Shown here: in pieces, positions 2,738 to 52,622 of the stretch
Position numbering within the stretch: the stretch's first letter is position 1
Layout: each line of letters begins with the position of its first letter
From: Bacteroidota bacterium
Lineage (GTDB): Bacteria; Bacteroidota; Ignavibacteria; SZUA-365
Assembly: GCA_003246455.1 (NCBI GenBank)
Contig: QKAF01000009.1
Span: 85,395 to 149,394, forward strand
DNA length: 64,000 bases
Reading direction: 5' to 3'
Translations under genes and position numbers: made by a program
Notes under the pieces: generated by a model
Seen by the model: only the letters and a program-made list of their open reading frames with translations
What the model was told of the DNA's origin: nothing
The model's database searches: none

Positions 2738-3051
2738 TACCGCTTTTTCGCACTGCCTCATCTTCAGGTCATGGAACGGTTATCCCCTCGACACTGTTGT
2801 CGGGATATCGAGTCGTTCCATGACACTTCCAACGCAACACACTGCAGTACCCCACCCGCGTGGAAACACACGGCTGCGATGCCGCACACGCGCGCCGCTG
2901 CAGGCCCCCTGTAAAGACTGTCAGCCGGACAGCCGGACCGGGAGTTCCGTACCGATCCCGCTTCCCGCAATACCCCTTTCCCGTTCGCACGCACCGGGGA
3001 CATTCGCCGATGCGCACGGGAACATTCTCCACTGTACTTCGGGAGAAAATC

Positions 3052-7125: not shown

Positions 7126-7350
7126 TCCGGCCGCGATTTCCCGCGATGCGGCTGCCTCATGCATCGGCCGGGGAACGCATGCCACCCTGACAAAATTGTA
7201 ATCCCCAGTTCAGATTTCCGAAAGATACGCGGACTAGATTGGGGTACACTCCCGGAACGCAACCGCGACCACGGGATCGACGTGGTGTTCCTTGAGGACC
7301 GTTCCGGTTCCTCACGGAACCCATGGCATACCCATTACATGGAGGCCAGA

Positions 7351-9990
7351 ATGCACCTTTCTCGTTACCCTGTGAAAAACCGCGCGGGGATCATAGCCAC
7401 GCTGACAATAGCGCTGCTGGCCTTCCTCTGCCTCGGGCAGCCCGTTACCGCGCAGCTCCACGGATCGTACACCATCGACGGCGCTGTCGCGACCGGCGGG
7501 ACGAACTACCAGACCTTCTCCGATGCGGCTGCGGATCTCGTGCTGCAGGGGCTCAGCGGTGATGTCACCTTCTCGGTGTCTCCGGGCCTGTACACCGAGT
7601 CCTTTACCATTCCCGCGCTCACGTACACGGGAACGTCGACGTACTGGTCGGTTCTTTTCGACGGCGGCGCAGGGAATGCGGCCAGCTGCGTGATTTCATA
7701 CGACATACCGGTCAACAACGAGGCGGTCATCACCCTCGACGGCGCGGATCATGTAACCTTCCGCAACCTTACCATCCGATCGACGAATGCCACGCACGGC
7801 ATCGGGGTTCTTTTCACGAATGCCGCGGATTACAACACGATTCTCGACTGCGCGATAGAACTGCCGGCATCGGGCAGCAGCACATACTGCTCGGGGATTC
7901 TTGCCAGCTCTAAAACCGTCTACTCCGGCACCGGGAATCACGGGAGCTACAATCGCGTGGAGAACAACACGATTACCGGCGGCTTCTACGGCGTCCGGTG
8001 GAACGGCTACGGCAGCGGCGATTTTGCCATTTCCCGCGGCAACCTCTTCATACGCAATACGATTACCGATTTCTATTATTCCGGTCTGTTTCTCTATTTT
8101 GGGGCCGCGGTCACGGCGCGCGGAAACCGTCTCATTGAAAGACCGGTTGCGTCACCGGGCAGCTACGCCGTCTACGCCTGGTACCTCAACGACGGCTCGG
8201 AGATCAGCGGCAACTACGGCCGTGCGCATACCAGCTTCTACGCGTTCAGACTCAACAACGCGTACGATGCCGGGAATCCAGGCAACCGCGCCCGCGTGTT
8301 CAACAACATGATGATTTCCGAGGGAAGCGGTACAATCTACGGTTTCAATCTCGAGTACCCCACCAACACCGACATCCTGTACAATTCCTGCGTCGCGCGC
8401 TCGACGACGGGAACGGTGTACGGATTCCGCAGCTATCGCGCCGCGACAGCGGGCGCGGGGACGGAGCTGCGTTTCCTCAACAACATTTTCAGCTGTTCCA
8501 CCAGCGGTGCGATATACGCCCTGCACGAAACGCCGTCAGGGGCGAACGCCTACAGCGCGTGCGACTACAATCTTTTCCACATGGACGGAAGCGGGACGCT
8601 GCACCGGTACCAGTGGGACGGCCTGACGTACGTGACGCTGCCCGACATGCAGACTGCCGTTCCGGGATTTCACCAGCACACGGCTGAGGCGGACCCGATG
8701 TGGGCCAGCAGTACGGATCTCCACAGTGCGTCGCCCGCTGTCACCGCTGCAGGAACCCCCGTTGCAGGCATCACCGATGACTATGACGGCGACAACCGCG
8801 GCGGCGTACCCTGCATCGGCGCCGATGAATTCGGCACCTGCACCATCACCTGTCCCGCGAACATCGTCGCGGACAACACGACGGGCGCCTGCGGTACGGT
8901 GGTCTCATTCGCTCCCGTCACAAGCGCCGGCTGCGGCCTCGTGAGCAGCACACCGCCCTCCGGATCCTTCTTCCCGGTCGGCTCCACCCCGGTCGTGTGC
9001 TCGACGGAGGCAGGTCCCCAGTGCACGTTCATGGTCACCGTCATCGACACGGAAGCACCGGTGATCGCGGCGCCGAACGTCCGCGCGACGACCGATCCGG
9101 GGCGATGCGACGCCGTCGTGAATTTCACCCCGACCGCCACCGACAACTGTTCCGGCGTCGGCGCAGTCACCTGCACTCCCCCGAGCGGATCGATTTTCCC
9201 GAAGGGCACGACCACTGTATTCTGTACCGTCACGGATGCGCACGGGAACGTCGCGTCGACCAGTTTCGACGTCACGGTCACCGACGCGGAAGCACCGATC
9301 ATTTCCCTGAATGCGCCCACCTCGATCTGGCCGCCGAATCGGAAGTACGTCACGGTTACCGTTGCACAGATGATCGCGGCCGTCACCGACAACTGCGATC
9401 TGCTGTCCGCCGCTGACGTCCGCATCGTAATGGCGACGAGCGACGAACCGGAGACCGGCGGCGGATCGGGAAACACGCTGGACGATATGGTCATCGCGCA
9501 GGACTGTCAGTCGATCGACCTGCGCAGTGAACGCGATGCCACCGAAAACGGCCGCGTTTACAGCGTCACGCTGCACGTCGCCGATCTCTCGGGCAATGCT
9601 GCGACCGCGGTGTACAAGGTATTCATACCGGCCAACAACAGCGGCGCGTGCGTGGAAGACCCGCCCGTGTATTCCGTCGCTTCCCAGTGCGGAGTGGCGA
9701 AAGCACGCGGCACGCGCTCGATCCCGGAAGGCCTTACGCTTGAGCAGAACTATCCGAATCCCTTCAACCCGAGCACGACGATCGTGTATTCCGTTCCTGC
9801 CGATGCGCGCGCCACGGTCCGCATCTTCGACAGCTACGGGCGCCTGGTCGAGACCCTGGCCGACGACGTCGTGACGGGCGGACGGCATTCCCTGATTTTC
9901 GATGCGCGCGACCTTCCCAGCGGAACGTACTTCTGCCGGCTCCAGGCCGACGGGCACGTACTGCAGCGGACGATGACGCTGATCAAGTAA
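7351..9990 (+). CDS. Large secreted right-handed beta-helix protein with HYR-like Ig domains and a T9SS C-terminal domain
   Basis: ATG at 7351 follows GGAGG. Signal peptide …LAFLCLGQPVTAQ. Repeated 'NNTITGGFYGV/NTITD' parallel-beta-helix motifs. Cys-rich ~80-aa repeats (CPANIVADNTTGACGTVVSF…, …NFTPTATDNCSGVGAVTCTPPSGS…) resemble HYR domains. The C-terminus LEQNYPNPFNPSTTIVYSVP… is the canonical T9SS CTD motif. Confidence 0.8.
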   Translation: MHLSRYPVKNRAGIIATLTIALLAFLCLGQPVTAQLHGSYTIDGAVATGGTNYQTFSDAAADLVLQGLSGDVTFSVSPGLYTESFTIPALTYTGTSTYWSVLFDGGAGNAASCVISYDIPVNNEAVITLDGADHVTFRNLTIRSTNATHGIGVLFTNAADYNTILDCAIELPASGSSTYCSGILASSKTVYSGTGNHGSYNRVENNTITGGFYGVRWNGYGSGDFAISRGNLFIRNTITDFYYSGLFLYFGAAVTARGNRLIERPVASPGSYAVYAWYLNDGSEISGNYGRAHTSFYAFRLNNAYDAGNPGNRARVFNNMMISEGSGTIYGFNLEYPTNTDILYNSCVARSTTGTVYGFRSYRAATAGAGTELRFLNNIFSCSTSGAIYALHETPSGANAYSACDYNLFHMDGSGTLHRYQWDGLTYVTLPDMQTAVPGFHQHTAEADPMWASSTDLHSASPAVTAAGTPVAGITDDYDGDNRGGVPCIGADEFGTCTITCPANIVADNTTGACGTVVSFAPVTSAGCGLVSSTPPSGSFFPVGSTPVVCSTEAGPQCTFMVTVIDTEAPVIAAPNVRATTDPGRCDAVVNFTPTATDNCSGVGAVTCTPPSGSIFPKGTTTVFCTVTDAHGNVASTSFDVTVTDAEAPIISLNAPTSIWPPNRKYVTVTVAQMIAAVTDNCDLLSAADVRIVMATSDEPETGGGSGNTLDDMVIAQDCQSIDLRSERDATENGRVYSVTLHVADLSGNAATAVYKVFIPANNSGACVEDPPVYSVASQCGVAKARGTRSIPEGLTLEQNYPNPFNPSTTIVYSVPADARATVRIFDSYGRLVETLADDVVTGGRHSLIFDARDLPSGTYFCRLQADGHVLQRTMTLIK

Positions 9991-10152: not shown

Positions 10153-11808
10153 TTATCGAAGCAGCATGATTCGCACTGCCGCGGCGCTGCCCGCCGTCGA
10201 CAGGCGCGCGATATACATGCCGGCACCCAGCCGACCGGGATTCCAGCGCACGCTGTGGCTTCCCGCCGCGAAGCGCGTGTCGCGTACGACATCGACCCGC
10301 TGGCCGACGCTGTTAAATATCTCGAGACGTGCCGGGCAGTCGCGCGGGAAGCGCAGTTCGAACAGCGCGCTCTCCCGGACGGGGTTCTGCAGCGCGATCA
10401 GTTCCGGTTTTTCGGGACGCACCTCCACAGGCGACACCGAGACTGTGCTGTAATCGAAGGGCTCGTTGACGAGGTGGTACTGGTCCTCGCTCTGGCCGTC
10501 GTAGTCGCGACGGAGATACGGGCTGAGCAGCGGCGTTCTTTCCTGTTCCGAGAGGAGAATCGGCGTCGGCTCCCCCGCGTTCCAGTCGTACAGGGGAATC
10601 TCATCCGGGATGATGGTCGGACAGAGACCGCGTTCCAGCGCGATGTGGAAGAGTCCGAAGTTGCCGGGTTCGTGTCCCGCGAGCCATGCCCCCACCATAT
10701 CGACGAGAAAAGCGTTCTTGCCGAAGACGAGCACATTGCTCATGAAATCCTGCGGGGTGCCGCCGGGACCCGGGCCGGCGTTGAAACCGTCGCCGTTGTG
10801 GCCGTAAATCCCTTCGATCACATTCAGGCCGACGCTGGTGACGCTGTGCGAATCGCAGGTGCGCTGCGCCCAGGTTTCCATCCAGTACCCGCCCGAGCTG
10901 CGGCCCGGCCGATCCCAGCGCGGTATCCCCTTCGCGAGGTGCTCCGCGTACAGCGCGTCGATGCGCTGCTCGCGATCGGGCTGAAAGTCGACCAGCACGG
11001 AAGGCGGACGCAGGGCCGTCGAATCGAGCCCTTCACAGAAACTGACGTAGGGACTCACCGCCATTCCCTGGAGGTTTTTCACCGTCAGCGTCATCCCCAT
11101 GCCGTGGGTTTTGAATTTCGCGATGTTGAGGAGGAAGGTATCCGCGTCGTTGTAGGGAGCGACATAGCCGATGCGTTTGAAAATGACGCCGTCAGGGACA
11201 TCGCGCCAGATCACCTCCGTGCCCGGCTGCAGCGTTTCGAGCGTCATATCCTTCAGCATCCTGCCGGTGGGGAAATCGAACACGTGACAGCCATGACGCT
11301 GCACGAGCTGTTCGAGCATCGGCCCGGTGACCGCGTACTCGCTCGGGCAGTAGCCGTCCCCCAGCCAGTTCCCCTCGCGCAGGAACATGTTGTGTCCCGG
11401 GAAGCCGCCGTCCCGCAGACCCTGCAGCACGCCGTCCACGAACGGGATGTCGGTCATGATGCCCATGCCGGCCGGCGTATTCCCCGTACCGGAGGTACAG
11501 GTGAGATTCGGCTTGACCGCGACCGCATTGGCGAACGGGATGTCGCCGCCGGTCGCCGCGATGAACAGTTCCCCGGCGAGCGCGGAACCGGCCGAGAATT
11601 TCGCGGCGGTATCGAGCTTGTCGGGCACGTTGGTCCGGCGGATGAACACCGCATCGGGATGCGCGGTGATGAACGGATGGAGCTGAAGCGAATCAGCGGC
11701 CGGGAGTGCATTGCCGCGCATGCGCAGCGGTGAAGCCCCCAGCCTGTTCGCGACCGACAGGCCAGCGCCCGCCGCGATTGCGGTTTCGAGAAATTGCCTC
11801 CGTTTCAT
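10153..11808 (-). CDS. Tat-signal DUF362-like protein with a T9SS-type C-terminal domain
   Basis: Minus-strand ATG at 11808 follows GGAGG. The N-terminus MKRRQFLETAIAAGAGLSVA fits the twin-arginine motif (RRxFL). The central AVKPNLTCTSG block resembles the DUF362 'KPN' core. The C-terminal ~75 aa (…LFELRFPRD…LEIFNSVGQRV…GMYIARLSTAG…) resemble a T9SS CTD. Confidence 0.7.
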   Translation of the reverse strand: MKRRQFLETAIAAGAGLSVANRLGASPLRMRGNALPAADSLQLHPFITAHPDAVFIRRTNVPDKLDTAAKFSAGSALAGELFIAATGGDIPFANAVAVKPNLTCTSGTGNTPAGMGIMTDIPFVDGVLQGLRDGGFPGHNMFLREGNWLGDGYCPSEYAVTGPMLEQLVQRHGCHVFDFPTGRMLKDMTLETLQPGTEVIWRDVPDGVIFKRIGYVAPYNDADTFLLNIAKFKTHGMGMTLTVKNLQGMAVSPYVSFCEGLDSTALRPPSVLVDFQPDREQRIDALYAEHLAKGIPRWDRPGRSSGGYWMETWAQRTCDSHSVTSVGLNVIEGIYGHNGDGFNAGPGPGGTPQDFMSNVLVFGKNAFLVDMVGAWLAGHEPGNFGLFHIALERGLCPTIIPDEIPLYDWNAGEPTPILLSEQERTPLLSPYLRRDYDGQSEDQYHLVNEPFDYSTVSVSPVEVRPEKPELIALQNPVRESALFELRFPRDCPARLEIFNSVGQRVDVVRDTRFAAGSHSVRWNPGRLGAGMYIARLSTAGSAAAVRIMLLR

Positions 11809-11926
11809 CGTCCTGCCTCCGTATGATTGCTGTGTCGCAGTTCCCGATCTTATTCGCTCAATCTCGCAATGGCGCGAACCAAATGCAAAGTTCTTTGACA
11901 CCTCAGCGCGCGCATCGTTCCCTCAA

Positions 11927-15359: not shown

Positions 15360-16223
15360 TTGTTTGAGAAACGAATCGTGATAACGAACCATCCAAATAT
15401 CGAAACCCTTGAGCTTTACGCGCTTCGCCGCAGCGGGCTCCCGACCGAGCAGGCTCTCGTAATCATGGAACACCTGAAAAGATGTTCCTACTGCAGTGAT
15501 ATTATCGAGGAGATTGACGATCTGATGCGGGAAACGGCGCAGGTCGACAACGCCCTGATTGCACGCGAGACCGCGCGGATCATGCGTCTGGCGACGACAG
15601 GCACGCCGGCAGCCCGGAATGAAACGGTGCTGTACCTGATGCCGTCCGCGGAAGCCAGCCCCGCCGACCAGGGCTTCGCCCTGGCCGCGAAAAGCGAAGA
15701 GGCGCAGATCGACTTCCGGCCCATCGCAACCCTGTACAGCGATGACGGACATACACTCCTTCGCATCCTGCACGAGCGTGACCAGGAAACCTATTTCTTC
15801 CAGCTGATGTCGGAGCACACCGATCACATTCCGTACGCCCTGCTCCTCGCCCCGGGGAAAGAGCCGATGATGACCGATCCCGAAGGGGCGTTCCGCATCG
15901 ACGACTCCGAACTCGACATCGTGCAGATCGTCAGCATGTCCGTCTTCTACGCGCTTGACCGCATGAAGGCCGGACGCATTGAAAATTACGAACTCGTCTC
16001 GCACGAAGGTGTGCTTCTCGCATCCGAGGACAGCACGATACACTTTCGCGCCGCGGAGCACGGCATCGACGCCGTGGTGCGCTGGCACGGGGCCGGTACC
16101 ACACCGCCGCGGTATATCGCCGTCGTCGCTCGCGGCATGCACGCGATCGGCGCCGTTGAAAACGATCAGGCTCATCTCGCGATGTCGTCATTCCCCGATG
16201 ACAGCATCGTTCTGCTCTACTGA
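15360..16223 (+). CDS. Putative anti-sigma factor-like protein with an N-terminal zf-HC2 zinc-finger motif
   Basis: The N-terminus …MEHLKRCSYCSD… has the HxxxCxxC zf-HC2 signature of ECF anti-sigma factors. No TM segment is present. Confidence 0.5.
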   Translation: MFEKRIVITNHPNIETLELYALRRSGLPTEQALVIMEHLKRCSYCSDIIEEIDDLMRETAQVDNALIARETARIMRLATTGTPAARNETVLYLMPSAEASPADQGFALAAKSEEAQIDFRPIATLYSDDGHTLLRILHERDQETYFFQLMSEHTDHIPYALLLAPGKEPMMTDPEGAFRIDDSELDIVQIVSMSVFYALDRMKAGRIENYELVSHEGVLLASEDSTIHFRAAEHGIDAVVRWHGAGTTPPRYIAVVARGMHAIGAVENDQAHLAMSSFPDDSIVLLY

Positions 16224-16319
16224 TTGATACAGGACAATTACCGAATACGCAGACAGGCCCCGACGGGGCCTGTCTGCGTATTGATCCGAAAATGCGGAAC
16301 CGAGGATCCGGGCGGGCGG

Positions 16320-18326
16320 TCACTGCACCGGTGTCTCCACGAGGATGGTGACAGTGCGGCAGTAGAAACGTCCTTCCGGAAGGTCATTCGTATACATGTC
16401 CGTCTCGCCGCGTCCGCTCGCGTTCTCCAGGGGAATCTTCAGAGCGCGCGCGGCGGATTTCGCACGTCCGTCAGACAGCGGCTGATTGACGCGCAGTTCG
16501 CCGATGCGGTCGGTGTACCCCGTAATCGTCACCGTCGACGTCGGACTGATGCGCGGCGAGATCATGTTGACGATGCGCATGTTCCGCGTTCCGAGTTCCT
16601 CGGAATTGAAATCAAAGAGAATCAGGTTGTAACGGTCGATCTCCTTGTCTCCGAGCCGCTCCCGGCGCTTCCGCTGGACGGTCAGCTGCTCGACGGGGAG
16701 CCTTCCCTCCTCCGTCGTGAAGGACTGCGCCGCGGCATCGGTCAGGGAGAGCGCGTAACGCAGGTCCGTCGTCGTCCGCGGTATGCTCGCCCGATCCTGC
16801 TGCACCTGCCAGTCAAGTGTCGCCGGTACGGTCTGTTTTCCGTCGAATGCCTTGAGCATGCGGTCGTCCTGGCGGACGGCGAGCGACCACTGGCTTATGC
16901 CCGCGTCGCTGACAACCGCCGGACGGAAGCGAACCCGAGGGGGATTGACGGTTCGGAGCGTATCGTCGATGACGATGGGATCGATGATTTCGGGCATGCT
17001 CGGGTAGATCTCCACGCGCCGGTTTTCCTGGATTCCGTCGATTTCCCCGATGTTCGACGGCTTCTCGGGGAGATTCCTGGCTTCGATCCGCATACGGTTC
17101 GCAGCGATACCCCAGGTACCCGCGAGATAATCACGCACGGACACGGCGCGGCTGCGGGAAAGCGCGGTATCCGCCTGTTCGGCTCCCTCGTCGCTGTTGG
17201 TGCCCACGAGGCGAAGCGTGGCCTCGGGATGCTCACGCATGCGACTGCCGATAATGTTCAGGACGTGATGGTAGGTCGCGAGATTGTCCAGCGGTTTGAG
17301 CGTCGTGTTCGAAAAATCCCCGGTCTCGGCGGAGGTCAGACGCGGGTATCGGTCGGGGAGCGCTGCCTGGTCTTCTTCGAAGAACACGTAGTTGAGCAGG
17401 GGACGCATTTCCGAGGAGATAAACTCCTCGACGCGAATGGTTGCAATCGGACGCTCGACCCCGTCTTCCGTAATCCCGAAAGCTTTCACCTCCGCTGCCA
17501 GTTTCGGCGGCGCGGGCGGCGGGGGCGGAGGCGGAGGCGGGGGTGGCGGGGGCGGGGGCGCAGGCTTCTCTTCCGACGGCCGATAGAGCAGACTGACACC
17601 GAGACGCAGCGTATTGACCTGCCAGTCCAGGTTCGAGACGACCGGGGTGAGGCCGTACGCGAACAGGGCTTCCGGGGCCGCGGTGAGCGTGCCCCTGTCG
17701 TCGAGCGGAAGCTCGTAGCGCAATCCGCCGACGAGGGACGCGGTGAAACTGGACGCGTCAGGGATGTTTCCCGCCGATGCGTTCCTGGTGCGCTGCTGTG
17801 TGTCGACGAACACGCCGCGATCCGGCGGATCGACGATGGTCTCGACCTGTTCGTAGTCCGACGTCACGACGTAGCCCGTCTGCAGACCGCCGAGCAGTGA
17901 CAGCCGGTCGACCAGCCTCCATGCAAGCATCGGTTCGAAGACGATCGCGGCAAGCGCGGCGTCGACCGTATGCTCGAACGTTCCCTCGTAATACGACGGA
18001 GCGACATACAGCATTTCTTTTTCGTCGGCCGTCAGCAGCCCGCTGTAATCGGCATACCCCAGACGCAGAAGCAGAGCGAGTTTCTGCTGCAGCGGGAGCT
18101 CGTACAGCACGCCCAGGGCAAAGCCTGTCCCGTCCCCCTTTTCAAAGCGGGGACAGCAGTTGGGCACGCCTGGCAGCTGCCGGAAATCCGCTGTGTGGTA
18201 GTTGAGGGAGAAATCTCCGAAGATTCCGTAGCGTCCGCGGAGCGCGGCGCCGTCATCGTCGTTCTGTGCAAGCAGGGGCGTTGCCAGAAAAACGGTGAGT
18301 GCGATGCAGAACAGACTGCGTTTCAC
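16320..18326 (-). CDS. OmpA-family outer-membrane protein: N-terminal beta-barrel, poly-proline linker, two OmpA-C-like peptidoglycan-binding domains
   Basis: Signal peptide MKRSLFCIALTVFLATPLLAQ. The linker PAPPPPPPPPPPPPPPPPAPP is encoded by a GGN/CCN repeat at ~17509-17565. The two C-terminal domains show OmpA-C signatures (…TLRLVGTNSDEG…ALSRSRAVSVRDYL…NRRVEI and …VTITGYTDRIGE…LSDGRAKSAARAL…). Confidence 0.85.
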   Translation of the reverse strand: MKRSLFCIALTVFLATPLLAQNDDDGAALRGRYGIFGDFSLNYHTADFRQLPGVPNCCPRFEKGDGTGFALGVLYELPLQQKLALLLRLGYADYSGLLTADEKEMLYVAPSYYEGTFEHTVDAALAAIVFEPMLAWRLVDRLSLLGGLQTGYVVTSDYEQVETIVDPPDRGVFVDTQQRTRNASAGNIPDASSFTASLVGGLRYELPLDDRGTLTAAPEALFAYGLTPVVSNLDWQVNTLRLGVSLLYRPSEEKPAPPPPPPPPPPPPPPPAPPKLAAEVKAFGITEDGVERPIATIRVEEFISSEMRPLLNYVFFEEDQAALPDRYPRLTSAETGDFSNTTLKPLDNLATYHHVLNIIGSRMREHPEATLRLVGTNSDEGAEQADTALSRSRAVSVRDYLAGTWGIAANRMRIEARNLPEKPSNIGEIDGIQENRRVEIYPSMPEIIDPIVIDDTLRTVNPPRVRFRPAVVSDAGISQWSLAVRQDDRMLKAFDGKQTVPATLDWQVQQDRASIPRTTTDLRYALSLTDAAAQSFTTEEGRLPVEQLTVQRKRRERLGDKEIDRYNLILFDFNSEELGTRNMRIVNMISPRISPTSTVTITGYTDRIGELRVNQPLSDGRAKSAARALKIPLENASGRGETDMYTNDLPEGRFYCRTVTILVETPVQ

Positions 18327-18422
18327 GTCATACCTCGTGCAGCGTGGATATTTTCGGACACGTGCGGCATCCGTTTTTACCTGCGTGCCGGTCCCCCCGG
18401 CATGCGATCACTCTGTCAGATC

Positions 18423-21400
18423 TCAGCGGGGAAGCTGGAGCCAGCCGTCACGGAGACTGCTGCGGACCAATCCTTCCCCCCACTCGACCGATTTCAGGTC
18501 GAGCGCAACGCGGTTCCGGCCTTCGAGCACCGCGGCGCGCAGCACGGCGAGGGTCGGACTTCCTTTCTCGTACCGGCCGTCGATGCGGATGAGCTGCTCA
18601 TCTTCCGTTTCAGACAGCACCCGTCCGCCCGAGATCACGCCCAGCGTTTTTTTTTTCACCGCGAAAACCGCTGAACAGCTGCCAGCCCCTGCGGCGTCCA
18701 GTCCGGCCGGTTTGATCAGCTGCAGTGCAATGTCGATGGTATCTCCACGGCGCGCGTTCATGCGCGGCAGACTCACGGTCGCCGATCCAAAACGGATGTC
18801 GCGGACATCCGAGGCCGTTTCACAGCCGGTTTCATTCGCGGTGCGCACCTGGTAGCGGCCGCTGCGGTCCGCGACGAACGTCCGATCGGTCGATCCGCGC
18901 AGCACTTTGCCGTCACGAATCCACTGATAACGCGGAGCTTTGGCGGCGATGAGCGTATCGTGCCGCAGCTGAACCGACGCGACGGGCATCGGTCGCGTAT
19001 AGGTCGTGACAGGGGTCGCCTCCGCCTCGCAGCCACCTTCCCCTGTAACCGTTACGGAAAAGGTGCCGGCCTGGCGGACGCCGAGATACCGCTCCGTTGC
19101 GCCTGTCGACCACCGGTAGGCCGCATACCCCTTCCCTGCGTCGAGGACAACCGAATCGCCTTCGCAGAAGGTCAGCGGACCCAGTGCGGCGATACGCGGC
19201 GTCGGACGTTCAAACACGCGAACCCGCACGGGTGCCGACGTGGCGGCACAGCCACGGGCGTTTGTCCCGGTCACGGTATACTCACCCGCCTTGCGCACGA
19301 GAATGTCAGGCGAAGTCTCCCCGCTCGACCAGGCATAGGAGGAGAGACCCTGCGGCGCACGAAGCTGCACGCTGCCTCCCTCACAGATATCGGTGCCGCT
19401 TTCGGCGGTGATGGCCACGGCGGGAGCTTCGAGCATGTCCACGCGGACACTGTCGACGATCTGACAGCCCTCGGCGTCGGTGATCGTCACCGTATACGCG
19501 ATGTCTCCCAGCGGCGTGAGCAGCGGTGTGGCGATGGAGCGGTCGCTGATTCCGCCCGCAGGGCTCCAGAAGATCCTGTACGGTTTGGTCCCTCCGCTGA
19601 TATTCCCGCCGATGCCGACGGGCTGCCCTTCGCAGGCTTCTATTCTCCGCGCCATCGCGATCCGCAAGGGCTCCGCTACCGCGACCTGCACCGAATCCCT
19701 CGCGCGGCAGCCCCGCGCGTCCGTGATCGTCAGGCGGTAACGCGTGCTGCGAAGCGGCCGAGCATTCGTGGATGCCGATCGTGCATCGGAAAGTCCTTCG
19801 GAGGGCTCCCAGTGATAGGCGTACGGCGGCTGTCCGTCTTTCGCAACGGCACGCAGCGCGGCCTCCCCATCGGAACAGATGCGCTGGTCCTTTCCGGCGT
19901 CGACGGTCGGGACGGGATAGACGGTGACATTAACCGTATCGCGCGTCTCACAGTCATAACGGTTGCGAACGGTAAGAACGTACGCGGTGGACTTCACGGG
20001 TCGCGCAATCGGCTGGGCGGTTTTCGCGGAACTGAGACCGGTTTCGGGCGACCACGAGTAGCGTGCACCGTAAGCGGTGTCGACGCGTGCGGGACCGAGT
20101 CTCAATTCCCCGCCGAGACAGAGGGCATCGTCGTCCCCGGCGTCCGCCTTATTGCACGGCTGTACGGTAACGGTGATTGTCGCATTCACGCGGCAGCCGT
20201 TCGCATCCGTCACGGTGACGGTGTAGGTCGTGGTCTGGATGGGATTCGCCACGGGATTCGGCGCCGTGCCGTCGCTCAGCCCTTCCCGCGGCATCCAGTC
20301 GTAGCGGTACGGCGCGCTGCCCCCGCTGATTCCCAGTTCGATGCGCCGCCCCTGGTCCCGGCAGATTGTCATTTCGGCGGGCACGGAAACGATCGGACGC
20401 GGATAGATGAACACCGTGACCGCGTCGGAATCCGTGCATCCGCGGGCATCCGTGACCACGACCGTGTACTCTGTCGTCTGGTTGGGACTCGCCACAGGGC
20501 TCATGGACGACGGGTTGTCGAGACCGAAGGTTGGCGTCCAGCTGTAGCGAAACGGCGGAGTTCCGCCCGTGGCGGTTTCCCCGACCGGTGTGCTGCTCCC
20601 CGCGCACATGCGGATGTCCGCGCCGGCATGCGCTTCGGGCGACGGAGCGACCAGCACCGACACTTCGTCGGTGGCTGTGCAGCCGTTCGCATCCGTCACG
20701 CTCAGCGTATACACGCGCGAGGCCGACAACGTGACAGTGGGTGAGAGTTCACGCACACTGCTCAGACCCGCGGCGGGACTCCAGAGAATCGAATAAGGCG
20801 GGCGTCCGCCGGAAACCGACCCGTTGAGCACCGCCGGCGTCCCGTTACAGAGCACGACGTCCTCCCCTGCTCCCGCCACCGGCGGGGCGATCACCTCGAC
20901 ATCCACCTTCTGCTCGGCGGAGCAGCCGGCGGCGTCGGTGACGCGCAGGGTGTATGTCGCGCTGATCTGCGGATTCGCCACGGGATTGGCGATGCCGGGA
21001 TTGCTCAGCCCGAGCGGCGGCGTCCAGGAATAGGCGAACGGCGGCGAACCGCTGCGAATGCTCCCGGTCAGTTCGACGGAAGCGCCGGCGCAGATCTGAT
21101 GGCGATCCTTGTACCGCAGCTCGGGACGCGGCTGCACGGTCACACGGACACTGCCGCCGACGGTACAGCCATTGGCGTCGGTCAGGGTGACGCTGTAGGT
21201 GGTATTCCGGTTCGGATTCGCGGTGGGCATCGCACTGCCCGCGTTGTCAAGCCCGGCAGCGGGCGTCCAGCGATAGCGGTACGGGGCAGTCCCTCCGACT
21301 GCTTCGGCCCCGATGCGCACACCCTGTCCGTCGCAGACGTTGACCTCGGCGGCGAACTGAAGCTCCGGCTGCGGATGCAGCGTCACCATGACGGAATCGG

Positions 21401-24400
21401 AAACCGAGCATCCGTTTGCGTCGCGGACGGTAAGAATGTACAGCGCGCTCTGCTCGGGCCGCAGATCCGGCGTCAGCACTGCGGCGGAACTGAGTCCGGT
21501 ACGCGGCGACCACTCGTAGGTATACGGTTTTTTCCCGCCGCTGACACGCGCGTTCAGCTTCGCGGACTCGCCGGCGCAGAGAGCGATATTGTCTCCCGCA
21601 TCCACCACCGGGGGATCGTTCACGGAGACCAGCAGCGTATCCGCGGCGAAACAGCCGTTCGCGTCGGTCACGGTGACGATATACTGTGCGTCGCTGCGTG
21701 CGGTCAGCTGCGGACTCTGGGCGGATGCATTGTCAAGCCCGGCAGCAGGGGTCCAGAGATACCGATACGGCGCGGTGCCTCCGTTCACTTTCGCGAGAAG
21801 CGATGTCGGCGCGTTGGCGCATGCCGTGATGCGGCCGCCCGCGTCGACTTCGATGCCCGGGTGGACGCGAACGTTCAGCGAATCCCGGGAAGAACAGCCC
21901 AGTGCGTCCGTCACGGTAAGAACATAGTGCGTACTGCGCACGGGAGCGGCGATCGGGTTCGGGGCTTCCGGATTGTTGAGTCCCGCTGCGGGAGTCCAGA
22001 GGAAGCGGTACGGACCGCGTCCGCCGCGCACTTTCGACTGCAGAACCACGCTGCTGCCCGGACATACCGCGCGATCCTCACCTGCCTCCGCGATCGGGGG
22101 CTCGGCTACGGTGACGACGACAGTGTCGGTGGTCTGCGCACCCTCCGCGTCCGTGACGGCGAGCACGTATGTGGTCGTCGTACGCGGCGAGGCGGTCGGC
22201 CGGGCATCCTGCGGATTGGAAAGGGATTCGGCGGGGCTCCACGTGTACTGGTACGGGGGCGTACCGCCCGAGGCTTCTCCGCCGAGCTTCGTGCTGCCGT
22301 CGCGGCAGATTGTCGTATCCGGACCAGCGAAGGCCACCGGATCGTTGAATATCACTCTGAGGAGAAACGCATCCGTCAGTCCGGAGAGGTCCCCCTGGAA
22401 GATGTTGCCCACCGTACGGAAGCCCTTGCTTTCCGTGCCGCCTACGACCACCGCGTTGCCCTGCGGGTCCAGGCCGAGCCCGTAGCTGATGTCGTGTGTC
22501 TCACCCCCGTAGAACGTGCCCCAGAGATACCCGCCGGAGGAAGCGAACTGCGCGACGAAAACGTCGTAGCCTCCGCCCTTCCGGTCGAGAAAGGACTTTC
22601 CGGCAAGCGGGAAATTCCGGCTGCCGGTGAAACCGGCCACGAGCACATTGTCGTCGTTGTCGACGGCGAGCCCGGTGGCTTTGTCCACTTCCACGCCGCC
22701 GAGGTAACTGCTCCATCGCAGACCGCCGTTCGGATCCATGCTCGCAACGAAGGCGTCGATCAGTCCTCCCATCCGTTTCTGCACGGGGTTGCCCGCGAGC
22801 GGGAACTGCGTGCTCGCCGTGTACCCGGTGAGCATGAGGTTCCCCTTGCTGTCCAACCCGATGCGCTCGACGCTTTCTTCCTGTTCCCCGCCGAAGTAGG
22901 TGCTCCAGCGGATCTTTCGCTGCCGCCCGTCGAGACGGATCACGAATCCGTCGAAGCTTCCTCCGCCGTAGGCGGACTGGCGATCGAGCGTGATCGCGGG
23001 CAGGTTGGTGCTTTCCGTACGTCCGGCGATATAAATGTCGCCCCCTGGGTCCACCGCGATGGCCGCCGCGAAGTCCATGCTCCACCCGCCGATATACGTC
23101 GCCCACTCGCGAATGCCCTTCGGAGAAAACCGGGCGAGGAAAATATCGTAGTCCCCGTTGTTGCTGGTCTGAATGGCGTCGGGGGTCACCGGAAAATTCG
23201 TGCTGTAGGTTCCGCCCGTCACGTACACCGCTCCGTCGGGCGTCACGGCGATATCGCCGCATTCGTCGGAATAACTGCCGCCGAAGTACGTGGCCCAGCG
23301 GCGGCGGCCGTTCTCGTCCAGCGCCAGGAGGAACACGTCGTAGCGTCCGCCGTTGCGGGGCTGCAGTGCGTCCTGTGTGACGGGCAGATCCGTGCTCGAT
23401 GTCGATCCCGCGACATAGAGCTGGCCGTCTGCGGTGATCGCGATCTGCGGATTCTCTTCAGAAGCGCTGCCGCCGAAATAGGTGGACCAGAGCTGCTTGC
23501 GCTCCCGCGAGAATGCGCTGACGAACACTTCGAAGCTGCCATGCGAAGCGGCCTGCAGGGCACCCGGGGAGACCGGGAAATCGGCGCTGGCGGAGAATCC
23601 GGTGACATAGATCGTCCCCTTCCTGTCCACGACCACATCCCGCGCATAGTCCGAAAGCTTTCCGCCGAGGAAGGTGCTCCACTGAAGGAAGGGATCGATG
23701 ATCAGCGGGAGGGACGGATCCTGTCCGGCAACGAAGAAACCGAGCTGGCCGTCTTCCACCCGCCAGTGCGCCTCCAGCGGCATGCGGGCTTCGTCCTCCG
23801 TCTGCTGGTAGACGAAAGGCGCGGCGTCGCGGAGCAGTCCCGCGGCATGATGGAATTCGAGCCCGCCGTCGGGAGCGAGCGAGGGATCCCCTGCGCCGTC
23901 GAGACGCATGGCGATACGCGAGTAATCCGCTCCCGGGTGCACGATGAATTCATACTTGACGCCGCGCTCTTCCAGGCGGCACACGAGATCGATTCCCGGA
24001 TAGAGGTTCTCGAACGTCACACCGCCGAACAGCGTCACGTCTTCCCTCCCGGCGGGAACGCCGGGGAAATACCAGTGCTGCGGCGCGGAACGCGGCGCCG
24101 TCAGGATCGTGCGACCCGCGCTGCATCCGTCGAAGCGGAGATCGACGCGGTACTGCGCCAGGCCGTTTTGGGAGGACGTACGGCGATCGCGGTCGGCATG
24201 AACGTCGGTCGCGCCGAAAGGCGTTTCGGGGAGTCCGTAATACACCAGGCTCAGGCCGCGCTCGAACACGAACAGGCGGGCGTTGTTCAGCGGCGTACTG
24301 ACGGCGAGGCAGCCGCCTTCCGAAGCGGGGACGCGCCACTGCCCGTGGTTTTCAACAAGGACGAACGGCGCTGCGGGGAGGTTTTCCGGCAGGATGACGG

Positions 24401-24494
24401 TGTGCGGGACCTGTTCTCCGGACGCAGGTGCGGACAGGCGTACGAACACCATGATCGCGGGAAGAACGGAAAGGAATGACGTCTTCAGATTCAC
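18423..24494 (-). CDS. Giant (2023 aa) secreted adhesin-like protein: beta-propeller-type repeats followed by ~14 tandem SprB-like Cys/GGxxPYxYxW ~80-aa domains
   Basis: Signal peptide MNLKTSFLSVLPAIMVFVRLSAPASG. The N-terminal ~700 aa contain ~8 units of YSTYFGG…DIAV…DG.IYV.G.T.S.NFP (SBBP/beta-propeller-like). These are followed by 12 canonical and 2 degenerate units of the form P..AG.D..IC.G....L...V.GG..PY.Y.W.P..GL.....NP.V.P..T..Y.V.VTD..GC…V.V.V.P. The C-terminal ~200 aa are a distinct domain, possibly a sorting domain. Confidence 0.85.
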   Translation of the reverse strand: MNLKTSFLSVLPAIMVFVRLSAPASGEQVPHTVILPENLPAAPFVLVENHGQWRVPASEGGCLAVSTPLNNARLFVFERGLSLVYYGLPETPFGATDVHADRDRRTSSQNGLAQYRVDLRFDGCSAGRTILTAPRSAPQHWYFPGVPAGREDVTLFGGVTFENLYPGIDLVCRLEERGVKYEFIVHPGADYSRIAMRLDGAGDPSLAPDGGLEFHHAAGLLRDAAPFVYQQTEDEARMPLEAHWRVEDGQLGFFVAGQDPSLPLIIDPFLQWSTFLGGKLSDYARDVVVDRKGTIYVTGFSASADFPVSPGALQAASHGSFEVFVSAFSRERKQLWSTYFGGSASEENPQIAITADGQLYVAGSTSSTDLPVTQDALQPRNGGRYDVFLLALDENGRRRWATYFGGSYSDECGDIAVTPDGAVYVTGGTYSTNFPVTPDAIQTSNNGDYDIFLARFSPKGIREWATYIGGWSMDFAAAIAVDPGGDIYIAGRTESTNLPAITLDRQSAYGGGSFDGFVIRLDGRQRKIRWSTYFGGEQEESVERIGLDSKGNLMLTGYTASTQFPLAGNPVQKRMGGLIDAFVASMDPNGGLRWSSYLGGVEVDKATGLAVDNDDNVLVAGFTGSRNFPLAGKSFLDRKGGGYDVFVAQFASSGGYLWGTFYGGETHDISYGLGLDPQGNAVVVGGTESKGFRTVGNIFQGDLSGLTDAFLLRVIFNDPVAFAGPDTTICRDGSTKLGGEASGGTPPYQYTWSPAESLSNPQDARPTASPRTTTTYVLAVTDAEGAQTTDTVVVTVAEPPIAEAGEDRAVCPGSSVVLQSKVRGGRGPYRFLWTPAAGLNNPEAPNPIAAPVRSTHYVLTVTDALGCSSRDSLNVRVHPGIEVDAGGRITACANAPTSLLAKVNGGTAPYRYLWTPAAGLDNASAQSPQLTARSDAQYIVTVTDANGCFAADTLLVSVNDPPVVDAGDNIALCAGESAKLNARVSGGKKPYTYEWSPRTGLSSAAVLTPDLRPEQSALYILTVRDANGCSVSDSVMVTLHPQPELQFAAEVNVCDGQGVRIGAEAVGGTAPYRYRWTPAAGLDNAGSAMPTANPNRNTTYSVTLTDANGCTVGGSVRVTVQPRPELRYKDRHQICAGASVELTGSIRSGSPPFAYSWTPPLGLSNPGIANPVANPQISATYTLRVTDAAGCSAEQKVDVEVIAPPVAGAGEDVVLCNGTPAVLNGSVSGGRPPYSILWSPAAGLSSVRELSPTVTLSASRVYTLSVTDANGCTATDEVSVLVAPSPEAHAGADIRMCAGSSTPVGETATGGTPPFRYSWTPTFGLDNPSSMSPVASPNQTTEYTVVVTDARGCTDSDAVTVFIYPRPIVSVPAEMTICRDQGRRIELGISGGSAPYRYDWMPREGLSDGTAPNPVANPIQTTTYTVTVTDANGCRVNATITVTVQPCNKADAGDDDALCLGGELRLGPARVDTAYGARYSWSPETGLSSAKTAQPIARPVKSTAYVLTVRNRYDCETRDTVNVTVYPVPTVDAGKDQRICSDGEAALRAVAKDGQPPYAYHWEPSEGLSDARSASTNARPLRSTRYRLTITDARGCRARDSVQVAVAEPLRIAMARRIEACEGQPVGIGGNISGGTKPYRIFWSPAGGISDRSIATPLLTPLGDIAYTVTITDAEGCQIVDSVRVDMLEAPAVAITAESGTDICEGGSVQLRAPQGLSSYAWSSGETSPDILVRKAGEYTVTGTNARGCAATSAPVRVRVFERPTPRIAALGPLTFCEGDSVVLDAGKGYAAYRWSTGATERYLGVRQAGTFSVTVTGEGGCEAEATPVTTYTRPMPVASVQLRHDTLIAAKAPRYQWIRDGKVLRGSTDRTFVADRSGRYQVRTANETGCETASDVRDIRFGSATVSLPRMNARRGDTIDIALQLIKPAGLDAAGAGSCSAVFAVKKKTLGVISGGRVLSETEDEQLIRIDGRYEKGSPTLAVLRAAVLEGRNRVALDLKSVEWGEGLVRSSLRDGWLQLPR

Positions 24495-24640
24495 GCGGTT
24501 GACTCAGGAGATTGAATGCACGGAATTACATCCGGTTAACGAAAAAAAGGTACGAAAATTGGCAGTCAATGCACAGATGTCCTTCCCTGCACGTCGGGGT
24601 GCGGGAGAAGGCGCAGGCGGCGCCTCCTCCCTGCCCGGCA

Positions 24641-25705
24641 CTATCGGAGGATCAGCAGCGGCTTCTGTGCAACGGCCGCGCCGGATGCGAGACGAAGGAA
24701 ATACATGCCGGCTGGAAGGCCGCTGATGTTGACGGGCGTCTGCCGCGCTCCGGCACCCGCGTCGAGCACGATGCGCCGAAGCTCGCGTCCGCAATTGTCA
24801 TGCAGCGTCAGAACCGCAGCCCCATCGGCCTTCCATGCGACGACGGTCTGTCCGCCGGCCGCGGGATGCGGGTACACCGAGGTGATGCCGAACGCGTCGG
24901 GTGCGCTCGTGCTCCCAACGGCGGAGGGGAGCTGATGGAACGTGAGGCTGGCGTCGACCACACCCGGAGTCCAGCTTTCCGCATCGAGCGTATCGACGGT
25001 GAGGGACGCACTCACACCGTCTTTCGTCAGGAACATGTAGTTCACCGAACTGGTGATGTCCTCGCTGAGGACCATGCCCGCGATTTCGACGCGGTCGGTG
25101 ATCTGCGACTTGTTGCGGATGCACAGGGCCGGCCAGCTGCCCAGCGCGGTGATCAGTATGCCTTCTGAAACGACGTCGATCTGCATTTCGGTCTGCTGGT
25201 AAAAGCCCTCCATGGGCTGCACCTCGTTGCCGGAGTAGGTCCACGACGCGCCGAGCTGGAGGGGGAACTTGAACGCCGGCTGCTCCGGATCATATTTCAG
25301 GACGTATGGCACGCCTGCCACCTCCGTGGCGAACCCCTGATCGTAGTACCCCGTGTCGTCCAACCGCGAATAGCTGAACGCGATCGTTTCCGATCCGAGA
25401 ATCTGGGCATGCGTCGCGGTCGGGAAGTCGACGGCGTACGGCGTCATGTCCGGGGAGAGGAAGACCGATTGGTAGGTCGACTGTTCGAAACTGAATGACG
25501 AGAAATCGTACACCTGCCCGCCGCCCGAGGCGCCGAGGTCGAACGTGACGCCGGAAAGCTCCGGCGTGGAGAAAATCGTGAGGTCTCTATCTACCAGCTC
25601 ATCTTCCATATCCGCGCGCGTAAACGTCAGCTGCGCATGTGCGGTACCGGCAAACAGAAGGCCGGCAAACAACAGAAAGAAGCATTGTTTCATCGTGGAC
25701 TCCAT
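24641..25705 (-). CDS. Secreted protein with a T9SS C-terminal sorting domain, function unknown
   Basis: Start at MEST-MKQCFFLLFAGLLFAGTAHAQ (ATG at 25705 or 25693). C-terminus …VYPHPAAGGQTVVAWKADGAAVLTLHDNCGRELRRIVLDAG…GMYFLRLASGAAVAQKPLLILR is T9SS CTD-like. The 5' extension of the six-frame ORF is not supported. Confidence 0.65.
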   Translation of the reverse strand: MESTMKQCFFLLFAGLLFAGTAHAQLTFTRADMEDELVDRDLTIFSTPELSGVTFDLGASGGGQVYDFSSFSFEQSTYQSVFLSPDMTPYAVDFPTATHAQILGSETIAFSYSRLDDTGYYDQGFATEVAGVPYVLKYDPEQPAFKFPLQLGASWTYSGNEVQPMEGFYQQTEMQIDVVSEGILITALGSWPALCIRNKSQITDRVEIAGMVLSEDITSSVNYMFLTKDGVSASLTVDTLDAESWTPGVVDASLTFHQLPSAVGSTSAPDAFGITSVYPHPAAGGQTVVAWKADGAAVLTLHDNCGRELRRIVLDAGAGARQTPVNISGLPAGMYFLRLASGAAVAQKPLLILR

Positions 25706-25905
25706 GAATAAATATGTGAGCGGAATGATACGAAAAAGCGGTGCAAAATGGGAATGCAGACCGTGCTCCGGCGCGGTTCCGCGCCCTGCGTGCATCGCGC
25801 GGGGCGGCCGTTCTGGGTTGCATTTCGCACCCTGTCTCTGTAACTTTGTTGATTCTCTGGTTTTCCAAACTGCACACCCCCACCCCATCACCATTCGGAC
25901 CGCAT

Positions 25906-27069
25906 ATGCTTACCGGAAGCGATTTCTACAACATAGACAGTCTGTTTCAGGAAGATGAGCTCATGGTGCGGGACGCCGTGCGGGGGTTTGTCCGCGGCGA
26001 GGTCCTGCCGGTGATCGAGGAAGCCGCCCGTGAGGGACGGTTCCCGATGCACCTGCCCGCGGCGATGGCGGAGCTCGGCATATTCGGTCCGACGCTGCCG
26101 GAGAAGTACGGCTGTGCGGGCGCGAACAACGTCATGTACGGTATCATGATGCAGGAACTCGAGCGCGGCGACAGCGGCGTCCGCAGTTTCGCAAGCGTCC
26201 AGAGCTCCCTTGTCATGTACCCGATTTTCCGCTACGGCACCGAGGAACAGCGCAGCCACTGGCTGCCGCGCCTCGCGCGTGCCGAAGCAATCGGCTGTTT
26301 CGGACTGACGGAACCGGACCACGGCTCCGATCCGGGCGGCATGGAAACGCGCGCAGTGCAGGACGGGGATCACTACGTTCTGAACGGCGCAAAGATGTGG
26401 ATCACCAACGGCACCATCGCGGACGTGGCCGTGGTCTGGGCCAAGCTCGACGGCGAGGTCCGCGGTTTCCTCGTCGAGAAAGGGACTCCCGGTTTCACCG
26501 CACCGGAAATGAAGGGCAAGCATTCGCTGCGCGCGTCGGTAACCTCGGAACTGGTGTTTCAGGACTGCCGGATTCCCGCGGAGAACATCCTGCCGGAAGC
26601 GCGGGGTCTGAAAGGACCGCTGGGCTGCCTGACGCAGGCGCGGTACGGTATCGCGTGGGGAGTCATCGGCGCCGCGGAGATGTGCTACCACACCGCACTC
26701 GACTATGCAAAAACCCGCAAGCAGTTCGGCAAGCCCATCGGGGGCTTCCAGCTCGTGCAGGAGAAACTGGTATACATGGAAACCGAGATCACCAAGGCGC
26801 GCCTGCTCGCGCTGCATCTCGGACGCATGAAAGACAACGGGACGATGACCTTCGCACATGTTTCCATGGCGAAACGCAACAACGTTGACATCGCCCTGCG
26901 CATCGCGCGCATCGCACGCGATATCCTCGGCGCGAACGGAATCCTCGACGAGTACCCGGTCATGCGCCATATGAACAATCTCGAGTCGGTCCGTACGTAC
27001 GAGGGCACGCATGACATTCATACGCTGATCCTCGGCAGCGAAATCACCGACATCCCCGCGTACAGCTAG
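25906..27069 (+). CDS. gcdH: Acyl-CoA dehydrogenase, glutaryl-CoA dehydrogenase-like
   Basis: ATG at 25906 ([14 protein letters not shown]…). Shows the acyl-CoA dehydrogenase fold motifs (…[21 protein letters not shown]…, C-terminal …[13 protein letters not shown]…) characteristic of the glutaryl-CoA dehydrogenase subfamily. Confidence 0.8.
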
Positions 27070-42462: not shown

Positions 42463-42598
42463 AAGATCCGCTGTAACCACTCATACTTTCTCGTGTCTAG
42501 TCGGGGAACATCGGATGCAGCCGGGGGCCGATCCGCGTTCGCCAGCGACAATCCTTCTCCTACATACAGCCTTTTCCTTACACCAGCCGGAGTTTCCC

Positions 42599-47779: not shown

Positions 47780-47799
47780 TCCTGCTCCCCCAGGAATGC

Positions 47800-47830
47800 A
47801 AAACCCGGCCGCAAGGCCGGGTTTTGTGTT
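47800..47830. terminator. Bidirectional terminator between convergent gdhA copy 1 and the receiver–PEP-binding gene
   Basis: AAAACCCGGCC-gcaa-GGCCGGGTTTT followed by GTGTTT. Confidence 0.65.
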
Positions 47831-47851
47831 TATGGTCGAATATGCGGCGCG

Positions 47852-51197: not shown

Positions 51198-52622
<1,425 letters not shown>

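Follow-up and report, generated by a model that had tools for sequence, protein, structure and literature searches.

The 64,000-nt window analysed here (positions 85,395 to 149,394 of the forward strand of contig QKAF01000009.1, GenBank assembly GCA_003246455.1) comes from a Bacteroidota bacterium placed by GTDB in the Ignavibacteria (SZUA-365). Its longest open reading frame (ORF), on the minus strand, encodes a Sec-type secretory protein that is predicted to consist of a beta-propeller head, a stalk of immunoglobulin (Ig)-like repeats and a terminal domain with a cohesin fold, and that ends without the C-terminal sorting domain (CTD) by which proteins are recognised as type IX secretion system (T9SS) cargo. 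The ORF and its domains, ordered from the N to the C terminus of the protein and numbered by window position, are as follows:

18423..24494, minus strand: the ORF, GTG start, 2023 amino acids (aa), uninterrupted and the longest in the window
24417..24494, minus strand: predicted Sec-type signal peptide, residues 1-26, MNLKTSFLSVLPAIMVFVRLSAPASG, with a putative cleavage site before EQ (translation read by eye)
23691..24356, minus strand: DUF7948 domain, residues 47-268 (~220 aa)
22341..23690, minus strand: SBBP beta-propeller, seven-bladed, residues 269-718
19425..22340, minus strand: stalk of 12 PKD/Ig-like units, residues 719-1690, each exactly 81 aa with no indel
18792..19424, minus strand: three shorter Ig-like domains of ~65-73 aa each, residues 1691-1901, delimited by reading the sequence in register
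18426..18791, minus strand: C-terminal domain with a predicted cohesin fold, residues 1902-2023 (122 aa), at which the protein stops

The stop codon occupies 18423-18425, and 96 bp separate the ORF from the next gene downstream. By inspection, the n-region of the signal peptide is basic, its hydrophobic core spans 16 residues, and A-S-G precedes E27; there is no lipobox cysteine, and the N-terminus of the orthologues is of the same kind. Public annotation calls these orthologues just "SBBP repeat-containing protein" or "hypothetical protein", and as a plain gene prediction the ORF is unremarkable: an ordinary, well-conserved SBBP repeat-containing protein of uncultured Bacteroidota/Kapabacteria-like metagenome-assembled genomes (MAGs).

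The head consists of two domains. DUF7948 scores 128 bits with Pfam PF25778 (cutoff 27, profile positions 2-213 of 214) and the propeller 103 bits with Pfam SBBP (PF06739), with blades that start at W274 and at residues 338, 402, 466, 532, 596 and 660, a period of ~64 aa in a motif scan. For residues 30-722, AlphaFold2 gives a model based on 40 homologues, with a mean predicted local distance difference test score (pLDDT) of 87.2, that has seven blades of four strands each plus a closing strand, and places DUF7948 as an all-beta module packed ahead of the propeller. The closest solved structure to the propeller is that of CylK (Foldseek E 1.4e-26, 22% identity), a cyanobacterial Friedel-Crafts alkylase (PDB 7fh6, 7ron) that also matches the ORF protein in a sequence search of the PDB (E 1.3e-17). 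The SBBP-type seven-bladed propeller is common to both proteins, whereas CylK is a soluble 650-aa enzyme with another N-terminal domain and no stalk. Heads of the DUF7948-SBBP kind are present on hundreds of adhesin-like proteins in many phyla, and precomputed Pfam assignments place CHU_C/PF13585 on some of the more distant head homologues (e.g. P0044, P0088, P0105 and P0111).

The 12 stalk units fit a single consensus in register, P...ag.d...C.g....l.....GG..PYrY.W.Pa.GLsn...a.P.a.P..st.Y.ltVTDA.GC...D.V.V.V.p, and are on average 37% identical to each other in protein (range 23-49%) and 47% in DNA. The strict core motif GG..P[YF].[YFIL].W.P occurs nine times, always at a spacing of 81 aa or a multiple of it, and cysteines stand at unit positions 12 and 68 throughout, except that unit 1 is without the second. 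Three profiles recognise the stalk: the SprB repeat PF13573 scores 90.5 bits against a cutoff of 28 over seven stretches, the best of which covers the core only (profile positions 21-35 of 37); K319L-like_PKD scores 90.6 bits over its complete profile (1-84 of 84) and describes the 81-aa unit better than PF13573 does; and the Pfam model Ig_7, the "CHU_C-associated" Ig-like domain, scores 82.1 bits. The three shorter domains that follow share the pattern C.G..V.L.A......Y.W..G..., the third without its first cysteine, and their Pfam scores are weak and below threshold (Ig_2 23.8 bits, Ig_7 22.6 bits); by alignment, the same Ig type is also present among the units of GhpA, the giant Ig-repeat grappling-hook protein of Aureispira sp. 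CCB-QB1. A phmmer search of the PDB with the whole protein finds GhpA (9flp_A, 5898 aa) at E 2.7e-119 (403 bits, nine stretches), and three of the 81-aa units alone find it at E 4.2e-36. These sequence matches place the repeats in the SprB/GhpA class of Ig-like stalk modules.

At the DNA level the repeats have diverged: Tandem Repeats Finder detects no 243-nt period in the gene, and there is no exact repeat of 24 nt or longer within it. When the units are compared with those of a relative that is 59% identical overall, identity is 62% on the diagonal (same position) and 38% off it, and the repeat motifs are spaced by 81 aa or exact multiples of it throughout the orthologues checked (overall identity down to 39%). 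Units thus resemble their positional counterparts in the orthologue most closely, and the comparison confirms that the array is old and stable.

Much of this had been anticipated in an earlier note made from the letters of the sequence alone. The coordinates, the length and the rank of the ORF as the largest in the window are exactly as given there, as are the divergence of the DNA repeats and the age and stability proposed for the array, and the Pfam score bears out the SprB-like repeat core. Its "~8" propeller repeats are indeed SBBP repeats, with a count that both the motif scan and the AlphaFold model put at seven; its 12 canonical repeats of ~80 aa are found at exactly 81 aa, while the two degenerate ones are replaced by the three shorter Ig-like domains. 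The 220-aa DUF7948 ahead of the propeller comes in addition to what it describes, and the last 122 aa form a separate domain.

Two further features of the stalk were recorded. Two cysteines that orthologues also conserve, C730 (unit 1) and C1447 (end of unit 9), depart from the regular Cys12/Cys68 pattern. The triplet D-[ST]-[AILVMT], the O-glycosylation motif of Bacteroidota, is found at unit position 72 in seven of the 12 units; the 12 sites counted compare with 8.0 +/- 2.7 in shuffled sequences, which is not a significant enrichment.

The end of the protein was examined with both kinds of T9SS sorting model. Neither the type-A models (PF18962, TIGR04183) nor the type-B models (PF13585, i.e. 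CHU_C, and TIGR04131) match the whole protein at E <= 1, and the isolated last 122 aa match nothing in Pfam, NCBIfam or the PDB sequences at E <= 10, so that sequence membership in Pfam Cohesin (PF00963) is not found either. An AlphaFold2 model of this domain, made from an alignment of 16 orthologous ends, is all-beta with a mean pLDDT of 95.8, and all but one of the 50 PDB matches listed by Foldseek are cohesin modules (best E 1.7e-7), the better of them with template modelling (TM) scores of 0.66-0.71. On this model the end domain has a cohesin fold; it is neither a type-A nor a type-B sorting domain. The low-ranking match 9ifr, the CLIPPER domain of a fibrillar adhesin from a Gram-negative bacterium, also features in a survey of intramolecular isopeptide bonds; it was judged irrelevant.

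The predicted beta-sandwich is common to the end domain and to cohesins of both cellulosomal scaffoldins and non-cellulosomal proteins (e.g. 2vn6, 1aoh, 2xdh, 2jh2). The end domain differs from them in being ~20 residues shorter and in having no sequence-level match to Pfam Cohesin or to PDB chains, and also in its host, a diderm bacterium of the Fibrobacterota-Chlorobiota-Bacteroidota (FCB) group, and in its position just ahead of a T9SS CTD in relatives. We found no literature on cohesin-like domains combined with T9SS. An invariant KKK motif and W104 characterise the end domain within the orthologue family, and both are replaced in the CTD-bearing relatives shown by the alignment; the most distant orthologue aligned (28% identity) keeps all five invariant and three of the five nearly invariant end-domain residues.

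When 1.84 billion representative proteins were searched exhaustively with a profile of the end domain, 229 representatives matched at E <= 0.001, and the best 150 were re-mapped with a local hidden Markov model (HMM). Of these 150, 134 continue beyond the domain with a tail of 85-120 aa (90-115 aa in 131 of them) that has the typical type-A pattern QN.PNPFN...G.YF...K; nine end at the domain or within eight residues of it, and all nine are orthologues of the ORF or fragments thereof. Por_Secre_tail is matched at E <= 0.001 in seven of nine relatives scanned, one of them above the gathering score, and a lineage CTD HMM built from 37 tails of 90-115 aa recognises the other 97 at E < 1e-5. The cargo that carries this cassette of cohesin-fold domain plus CTD includes, among the relatives scanned, an S8 protease and a lectin-like protein with Laminin_G_3 as well as SBBP and PKD/PD40 proteins; the domain sits ~20 residues before the type-A CTD (P0128-P0266, e.g. 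P0140, P0128 and P0147), and in some proteins (P0131, P0192) two copies stand in tandem. The cohesin-fold domain is thus a widespread, modular "pre-CTD" unit without a match to the models of Pfam and NCBIfam at E <= 10, and because it precedes a type-A CTD in relatives, it is not itself a sorting domain of a known type. Its position becomes membrane-proximal once the CTD is cleaved, so that the domain bears on how T9SS cargo is arranged at the surface. Proteins with the succession of Ig-like domains, cohesin-fold domain and CTD (e.g. P0050, P0054, P0128, P0140) have a homologous cohesin-fold domain after the same Ig-like domains as the ORF protein, and P0050, P0054 and P0130 share its DUF7948-SBBP head as well; where these proteins run on for ~100 aa into a canonical type-A CTD, the ORF protein stops at the end of the cohesin-fold domain.

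With the lineage CTD HMM, too, the ORF protein has no match at E <= 10, against 84-87 bits for three other ORFs of the window. Four window genes lie above the curated TIGR04183 cutoff for type-A CTDs, at 7159-9990 (+), 24641-25693 (-), 40201-42246 (+) and 42515-44662 (+), and there are two further candidates, a sub-threshold one at 10153-11901 (-) and a borderline one at 6331-7125 (+); type-A cargo genes are thus densely packed in the window. Because four other genes of the same window pass the curated threshold, we take the absence of a CTD from the ORF protein to be genuine; these genes show clearly that T9SS is in use in the organism and that its CTDs are within reach of the models. Among the ~35 window ORFs scanned, several of which have no family match, Pfam and NCBIfam recognised no genes of the T9SS core (sprA, porV, gldKLMN). 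The earlier note had read the C-terminus as not being a type-A CTD, which agrees with the results of all the models, and had suggested a type-B, SprB-like one, which does not: the type-B models find nothing, the predicted fold is that of a cohesin, the domain precedes a type-A CTD in relatives, and there is no adjacent PorP/SprF-like gene. It had also named the lack of SprB-type repeats or of any T9SS CTD as a possible sign of secretion by another route; the repeats are present and the CTD is not.

The distribution of C-termini was surveyed in the best 120 homologues of the whole protein. Twenty-five of them end in the cohesin-fold domain without a CTD and make up the orthologue family (end-domain identity to the ORF 28-82%), 12 combine the cohesin-fold domain with a type-A CTD, and in 16 the type-A CTD stands alone. 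The ends of the orthologues are identical across independent MAGs. This pattern indicates that the CTD was probably lost long ago and that the CTD-less state is maintained across at least 25 sequence clusters.

The genes on either side of the ORF are encoded on the same strand:

16320..18326, minus strand: downstream gene, 668 aa, 96 bp past the ORF stop; N-terminal outer-membrane beta-barrel, linked through ~15 consecutive prolines to two OmpA-like peptidoglycan-binding domains
24641..25693, minus strand: upstream gene, a ~350-aa secreted protein, 146 bp before the ORF start, with a type-A T9SS sorting domain

The OmpA-like stretches of the downstream protein lie at residues 352-441 and 567-663 (Pfam OmpA, 44.5 bits) and are the only parts of it that a PDB sequence search matches. 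Its barrel (residues 1-254) gives weak scores only (OMP_b-brl_2 16.5 bits, TDE1717 16.8 bits); as a PorP/SprF protein it was rejected, having no Pfam or NCBIfam match of that kind at E <= 10, a level at which HMMER filters can hide very weak matches. The gene adjoins the ORF in all close relatives checked and may be co-transcribed with it. It is also found lineage-wide (510 homologues at E <= 1e-5), and in two more distant genomes its orthologues are not beside an SBBP gene; a functional link to the ORF was accordingly set aside and the adjacency treated as synteny only. The orthologues of this OmpA gene, of ~650-720 aa, are widespread in Kapabacteria/Ignavibacteria-type MAGs, which suggests that the protein is a major tether of the envelope in this lineage.

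The upstream protein scores 28.7 bits with TIGR04183 (cutoff 23) and 24 bits with the lineage CTD HMM, and its single PDB match is weak (E 4e-4), to an uncharacterised protein and in the CTD region only. The gene is syntenic in the close clade (L001, L003, L005, L015 and L018). The idea that it might be a split-off piece of a paralogue was dropped, since BLASTP against P0050 matches the CTD only. Matches to relatives in tblastn reach ~35-55 codons 5' of the likely start of this gene (MKQCFF..., residue 68 of its reading frame), in the region 25693-25860 on the minus strand, which would reflect either a true start further upstream or a conserved intergenic, divergent-promoter region shared with the acyl-CoA dehydrogenase gene. 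A promoter and terminator scan of 16000-26200 gave no sites above the level of shuffled sequence.

A different neighbour is seen in the Ignavibacteria-like genomes L002, L016 and L017, which are independent of each other: there, the CTD-less orthologue is directly followed by a paralogue with the same head. The arrays consist of two or three DUF7948-SBBP paralogues (L002 8001-17913; L016 8001-21430; L017 8001-20773), and the CTD-less orthologue comes first. The second gene of the L002 array encodes P0050, which has a cohesin-fold domain and a type-A CTD and is the best-scoring CTD-bearing cohesin match (67.7 bits); the corresponding proteins of L016 and L017 agree with it in size and head. The tandem paralogue is more suggestive of a functional link than are the neighbours in the close clade.

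Three described groups of proteins invite comparison. GhpA combines a Sec signal and an N-terminal hook with a rigid, disulfide-stabilised stem of 52 Ig-like repeats plus a C-terminal T9SS sorting domain, assembles into a heptamer, and is followed by PorP-like and PorE-like genes (ghpB/C); its authors note its similarity to SprB (bioRxiv 10.1101/2024.01.29.577165). The ORF protein resembles it in the Sec signal, the distal N-terminal functional module, the long stalk of homologous, Cys-containing Ig-like repeats of ~80 aa, the Bacteroidota/FCB lineage, and the gene for an outer-membrane barrel with OmpA-like domains downstream. The differences are as marked: GhpA is three times longer, with 52 repeats, and has a loop-like hook in place of a DUF7948 and propeller head; it ends in a T9SS sorting domain and not in a cohesin-fold domain; and the genes that follow it are PorP-like and PorE-like, whereas the barrel-OmpA gene downstream of the ORF has no PorP-family match. 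The hook module was not seen in the ORF protein, in which the one GhpA-matching stretch with listed coordinates (residues 910-1548 of the ORF protein) lies inside the repeats. SprB, the gliding adhesin of Flavobacterium johnsoniae, is likewise a giant repeat protein, and the core GG..PY.Y.W of the ORF units matches PF13573 above threshold; SprB has 6497 aa against 2023 aa, and the ORF has neither a type-B CTD nor a SprF/PorP-like neighbour. With no CTD, hook, type-B domain or PorP/SprF neighbour, the ORF protein is a full member of neither the SprB nor the GhpA type. The fibrillar adhesin-like proteins of Monzon et al. (2021; PMC8286594) combine tandem stalk domains with at least one known adhesive domain. 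The 12 + 3 Ig/PKD-like domains of the ORF protein provide such a stalk; its head consists of DUF7948 and SBBP, and the words SBBP and SprB are absent from the main text of PMC8286594.

In our reading the ORF codes for a giant protein, fibrillar and adhesin-like, that belongs with the Ig-repeat proteins of the SprB/GhpA class and has shed its sorting domain, and we give this explanation as a whole a probability of roughly 0.5. The propeller head would be the distal and likely ligand-binding part. The 15 Ig-like modules would form a stiff spacer, as suggested by the invariant unit length and the conserved cysteines, and would project the head outwards by some tens of nanometres, a length that follows from the usual dimensions of Ig-like domains. 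The cohesin-fold module would be the cell-proximal base, by analogy with T9SS adhesins that are held by their C-terminus. The lineage would derive from an ancestor with both cohesin-fold domain and CTD, by loss of the CTD, and the protein would therefore no longer be attached to the surface by a CTD-dependent route of its own. Instead, the base may bind a partner non-covalently, in place of the covalent, CTD-dependent anchoring of the paralogues; this partner would most likely hold the protein and might perhaps carry it across the outer membrane, and the contact could be made by the cohesin-fold base or by lateral contacts of the stalks as in the GhpA heptamer. In the Ignavibacteria-like genomes, the paralogue with cohesin-fold domain and CTD encoded directly downstream is the obvious candidate for such a partner. 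The protein might cross the outer membrane by co-export with a tagged partner, by means of an unrecognised signal, or might not be exported at all; its surface exposure we infer.

Several observations weigh against this explanation or parts of it. Pfam, NCBIfam and the lineage CTD HMM recognise no outer-membrane export or anchoring signal in the protein, and to our knowledge piggyback export through T9SS has not been demonstrated. The Pfam scan of ~35 window ORFs shows no dockerin domain, and there is no second cohesin-fold domain in the window. The tandem paralogue is absent from the locus in the close clade to which the window belongs. The adjacency of the OmpA gene and the CTD-protein gene may be inherited synteny, as the whole neighbourhood (GARS, GT4, M24, IMPDH, acyl-CoA dehydrogenase) is also conserved. 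Finally, a subclade of ~50% identical proteins (P0022 and P0024-P0028; e.g. L015 3147-8879) has no cohesin-fold domain and keeps the head, the stalk, and the flanking genes for the CTD protein and OmpA; in the three members read in sequence, the C-terminus is a short basic tail that is unrelated from one protein to the next. Because this subclade lost the domain, the base module is dispensable in some lineages. These base-less lineages argue against the cohesin-fold domain as an export signal, and docking through the base cannot be the whole story.

A more specific version of the adhesin explanation holds that the cohesin-fold module is an undescribed docking device of T9SS-bearing FCB bacteria, placed at the membrane-proximal end of many surface proteins, by which a tagless adhesin is assembled, and perhaps exported, together with a tagged, CTD-bearing paralogue, namely the one encoded beside it in the Ignavibacteria-like genomes. 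We hold this version to be a long shot; if true, it would mean that Gram-negative bacteria, away from any cellulosome, use cohesins for assembly at the surface and T9SS for piggyback export.

Among the alternatives to a surface adhesin, the first is that loss of the CTD relocated the protein to the periplasm or the inner face of the outer membrane, where it might act, for example, as an envelope scaffold. The protein does have a Sec signal with no outer-membrane export signal of a known kind, the next gene encodes a peptidoglycan-binding outer-membrane protein, and the conserved cysteine pairs are compatible with periplasmic folding. Set against this, a head, 15 Ig-like modules and a base make up the architecture of extracellular fibrillar adhesins (PMC8286594) and of GhpA, the stalk would exceed the width of the periplasm, and all homologues with a recognisable signal are T9SS cargo; a periplasmic location is in our view unlikely.

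It is also improbable that the cohesin-fold domain is a new kind of T9SS sorting or anchoring signal, which would make the protein ordinary T9SS cargo with an atypical CTD. The domain is a C-terminal beta-sandwich of about the right size on a Sec-exported protein in a T9SS-rich genome, and the KKK motif and W104 are invariant features of the orthologue family's own; moreover, some T9SS-dependent proteins have CTDs of neither type, as does ChiA of F. johnsoniae, which matches neither type A nor type B. The same domain, however, coexists with a canonical type-A CTD in the 134 of 150 relatives described above, and the base-less subclade has deleted it while keeping the rest of the gene and its context.

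The head could, in principle, be an enzyme and the protein a displayed catalyst, as no other protein comes close to CylK as a match of the propeller, in structure or in sequence. The identity is just 22% and is confined to the propeller scaffold, and the wide occurrence of DUF7948-SBBP heads on adhesin-like proteins speaks for another role. The N-terminal domain of CylK is calcium-binding and forms the active site together with the propeller; the N-terminal partner here is DUF7948, unlike that of CylK, and a catalytic head appears very unlikely.

Hardly any weight can be given to the view of the protein as SprB-like T9SS cargo with a type-B sorting domain, held by a PorP/SprF-like partner and serving as a gliding adhesin or rail protein. 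The SprB-repeat matches above threshold, the homology of the stalk to the SprB-like GhpA and the CHU_C/PF13585 domains on distant head homologues are all in keeping with it, and the downstream barrel and OmpA-like gene loosely recalls ghpB/C and the PorP and PorE gene pairs found next to type-B cargo genes (PMC9143113). Yet PF13585 and TIGR04131 match neither the whole protein (E <= 1) nor the isolated domain (E <= 10), the predicted cohesin fold and its place before type-A CTDs point elsewhere, and the downstream gene, whose barrel has no PorP/SprF match at E <= 10, belongs to a lineage-wide OmpA family that lies away from SBBP genes in other genomes.

That the ORF is a decaying, functionless remnant of truncated T9SS cargo, as the missing CTD and the still shorter C-termini of some orthologues might suggest, is scarcely credible, given an intact 6-kb frame, 25 orthologous clusters from MAGs of independent studies with one end point, repeats conserved position by position with zero indels, and the retention of all five invariant and three of the five nearly invariant end-domain residues at 28% identity.

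SprB, GhpA and other giant Ig-repeat adhesins of Bacteroidota are regarded as T9SS cargo, for which the CTD serves both for export and as an anchor. The family of the ORF has kept an adhesin-type head and stalk and appears to have shed the tag, a state maintained over at least 25 clusters. Either these bacteria would have a second route for displaying very large proteins, or the protein would work inside the envelope.

Two other loci of the window were noted. A tandem duplication spans 46439-50890 and 51279-55727, with a spacing of ~4.84 kb and ~72-78% DNA identity between the copies in register; each duplicated block contains a gene for a glutamate/leucine-type dehydrogenase (+) and one for a ~1000-aa protein (-) with regions that resemble a response regulator and a PEP-utilising enzyme. 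At 2860-5511 (+) lies the gene for an 883-aa P-type ATPase, which scores 1049 bits, against a cutoff of 615.5, with the NCBIfam equivalog for plasma-membrane proton-efflux (type IIIA) ATPases, a subtype more familiar in fungi and plants than in bacteria.

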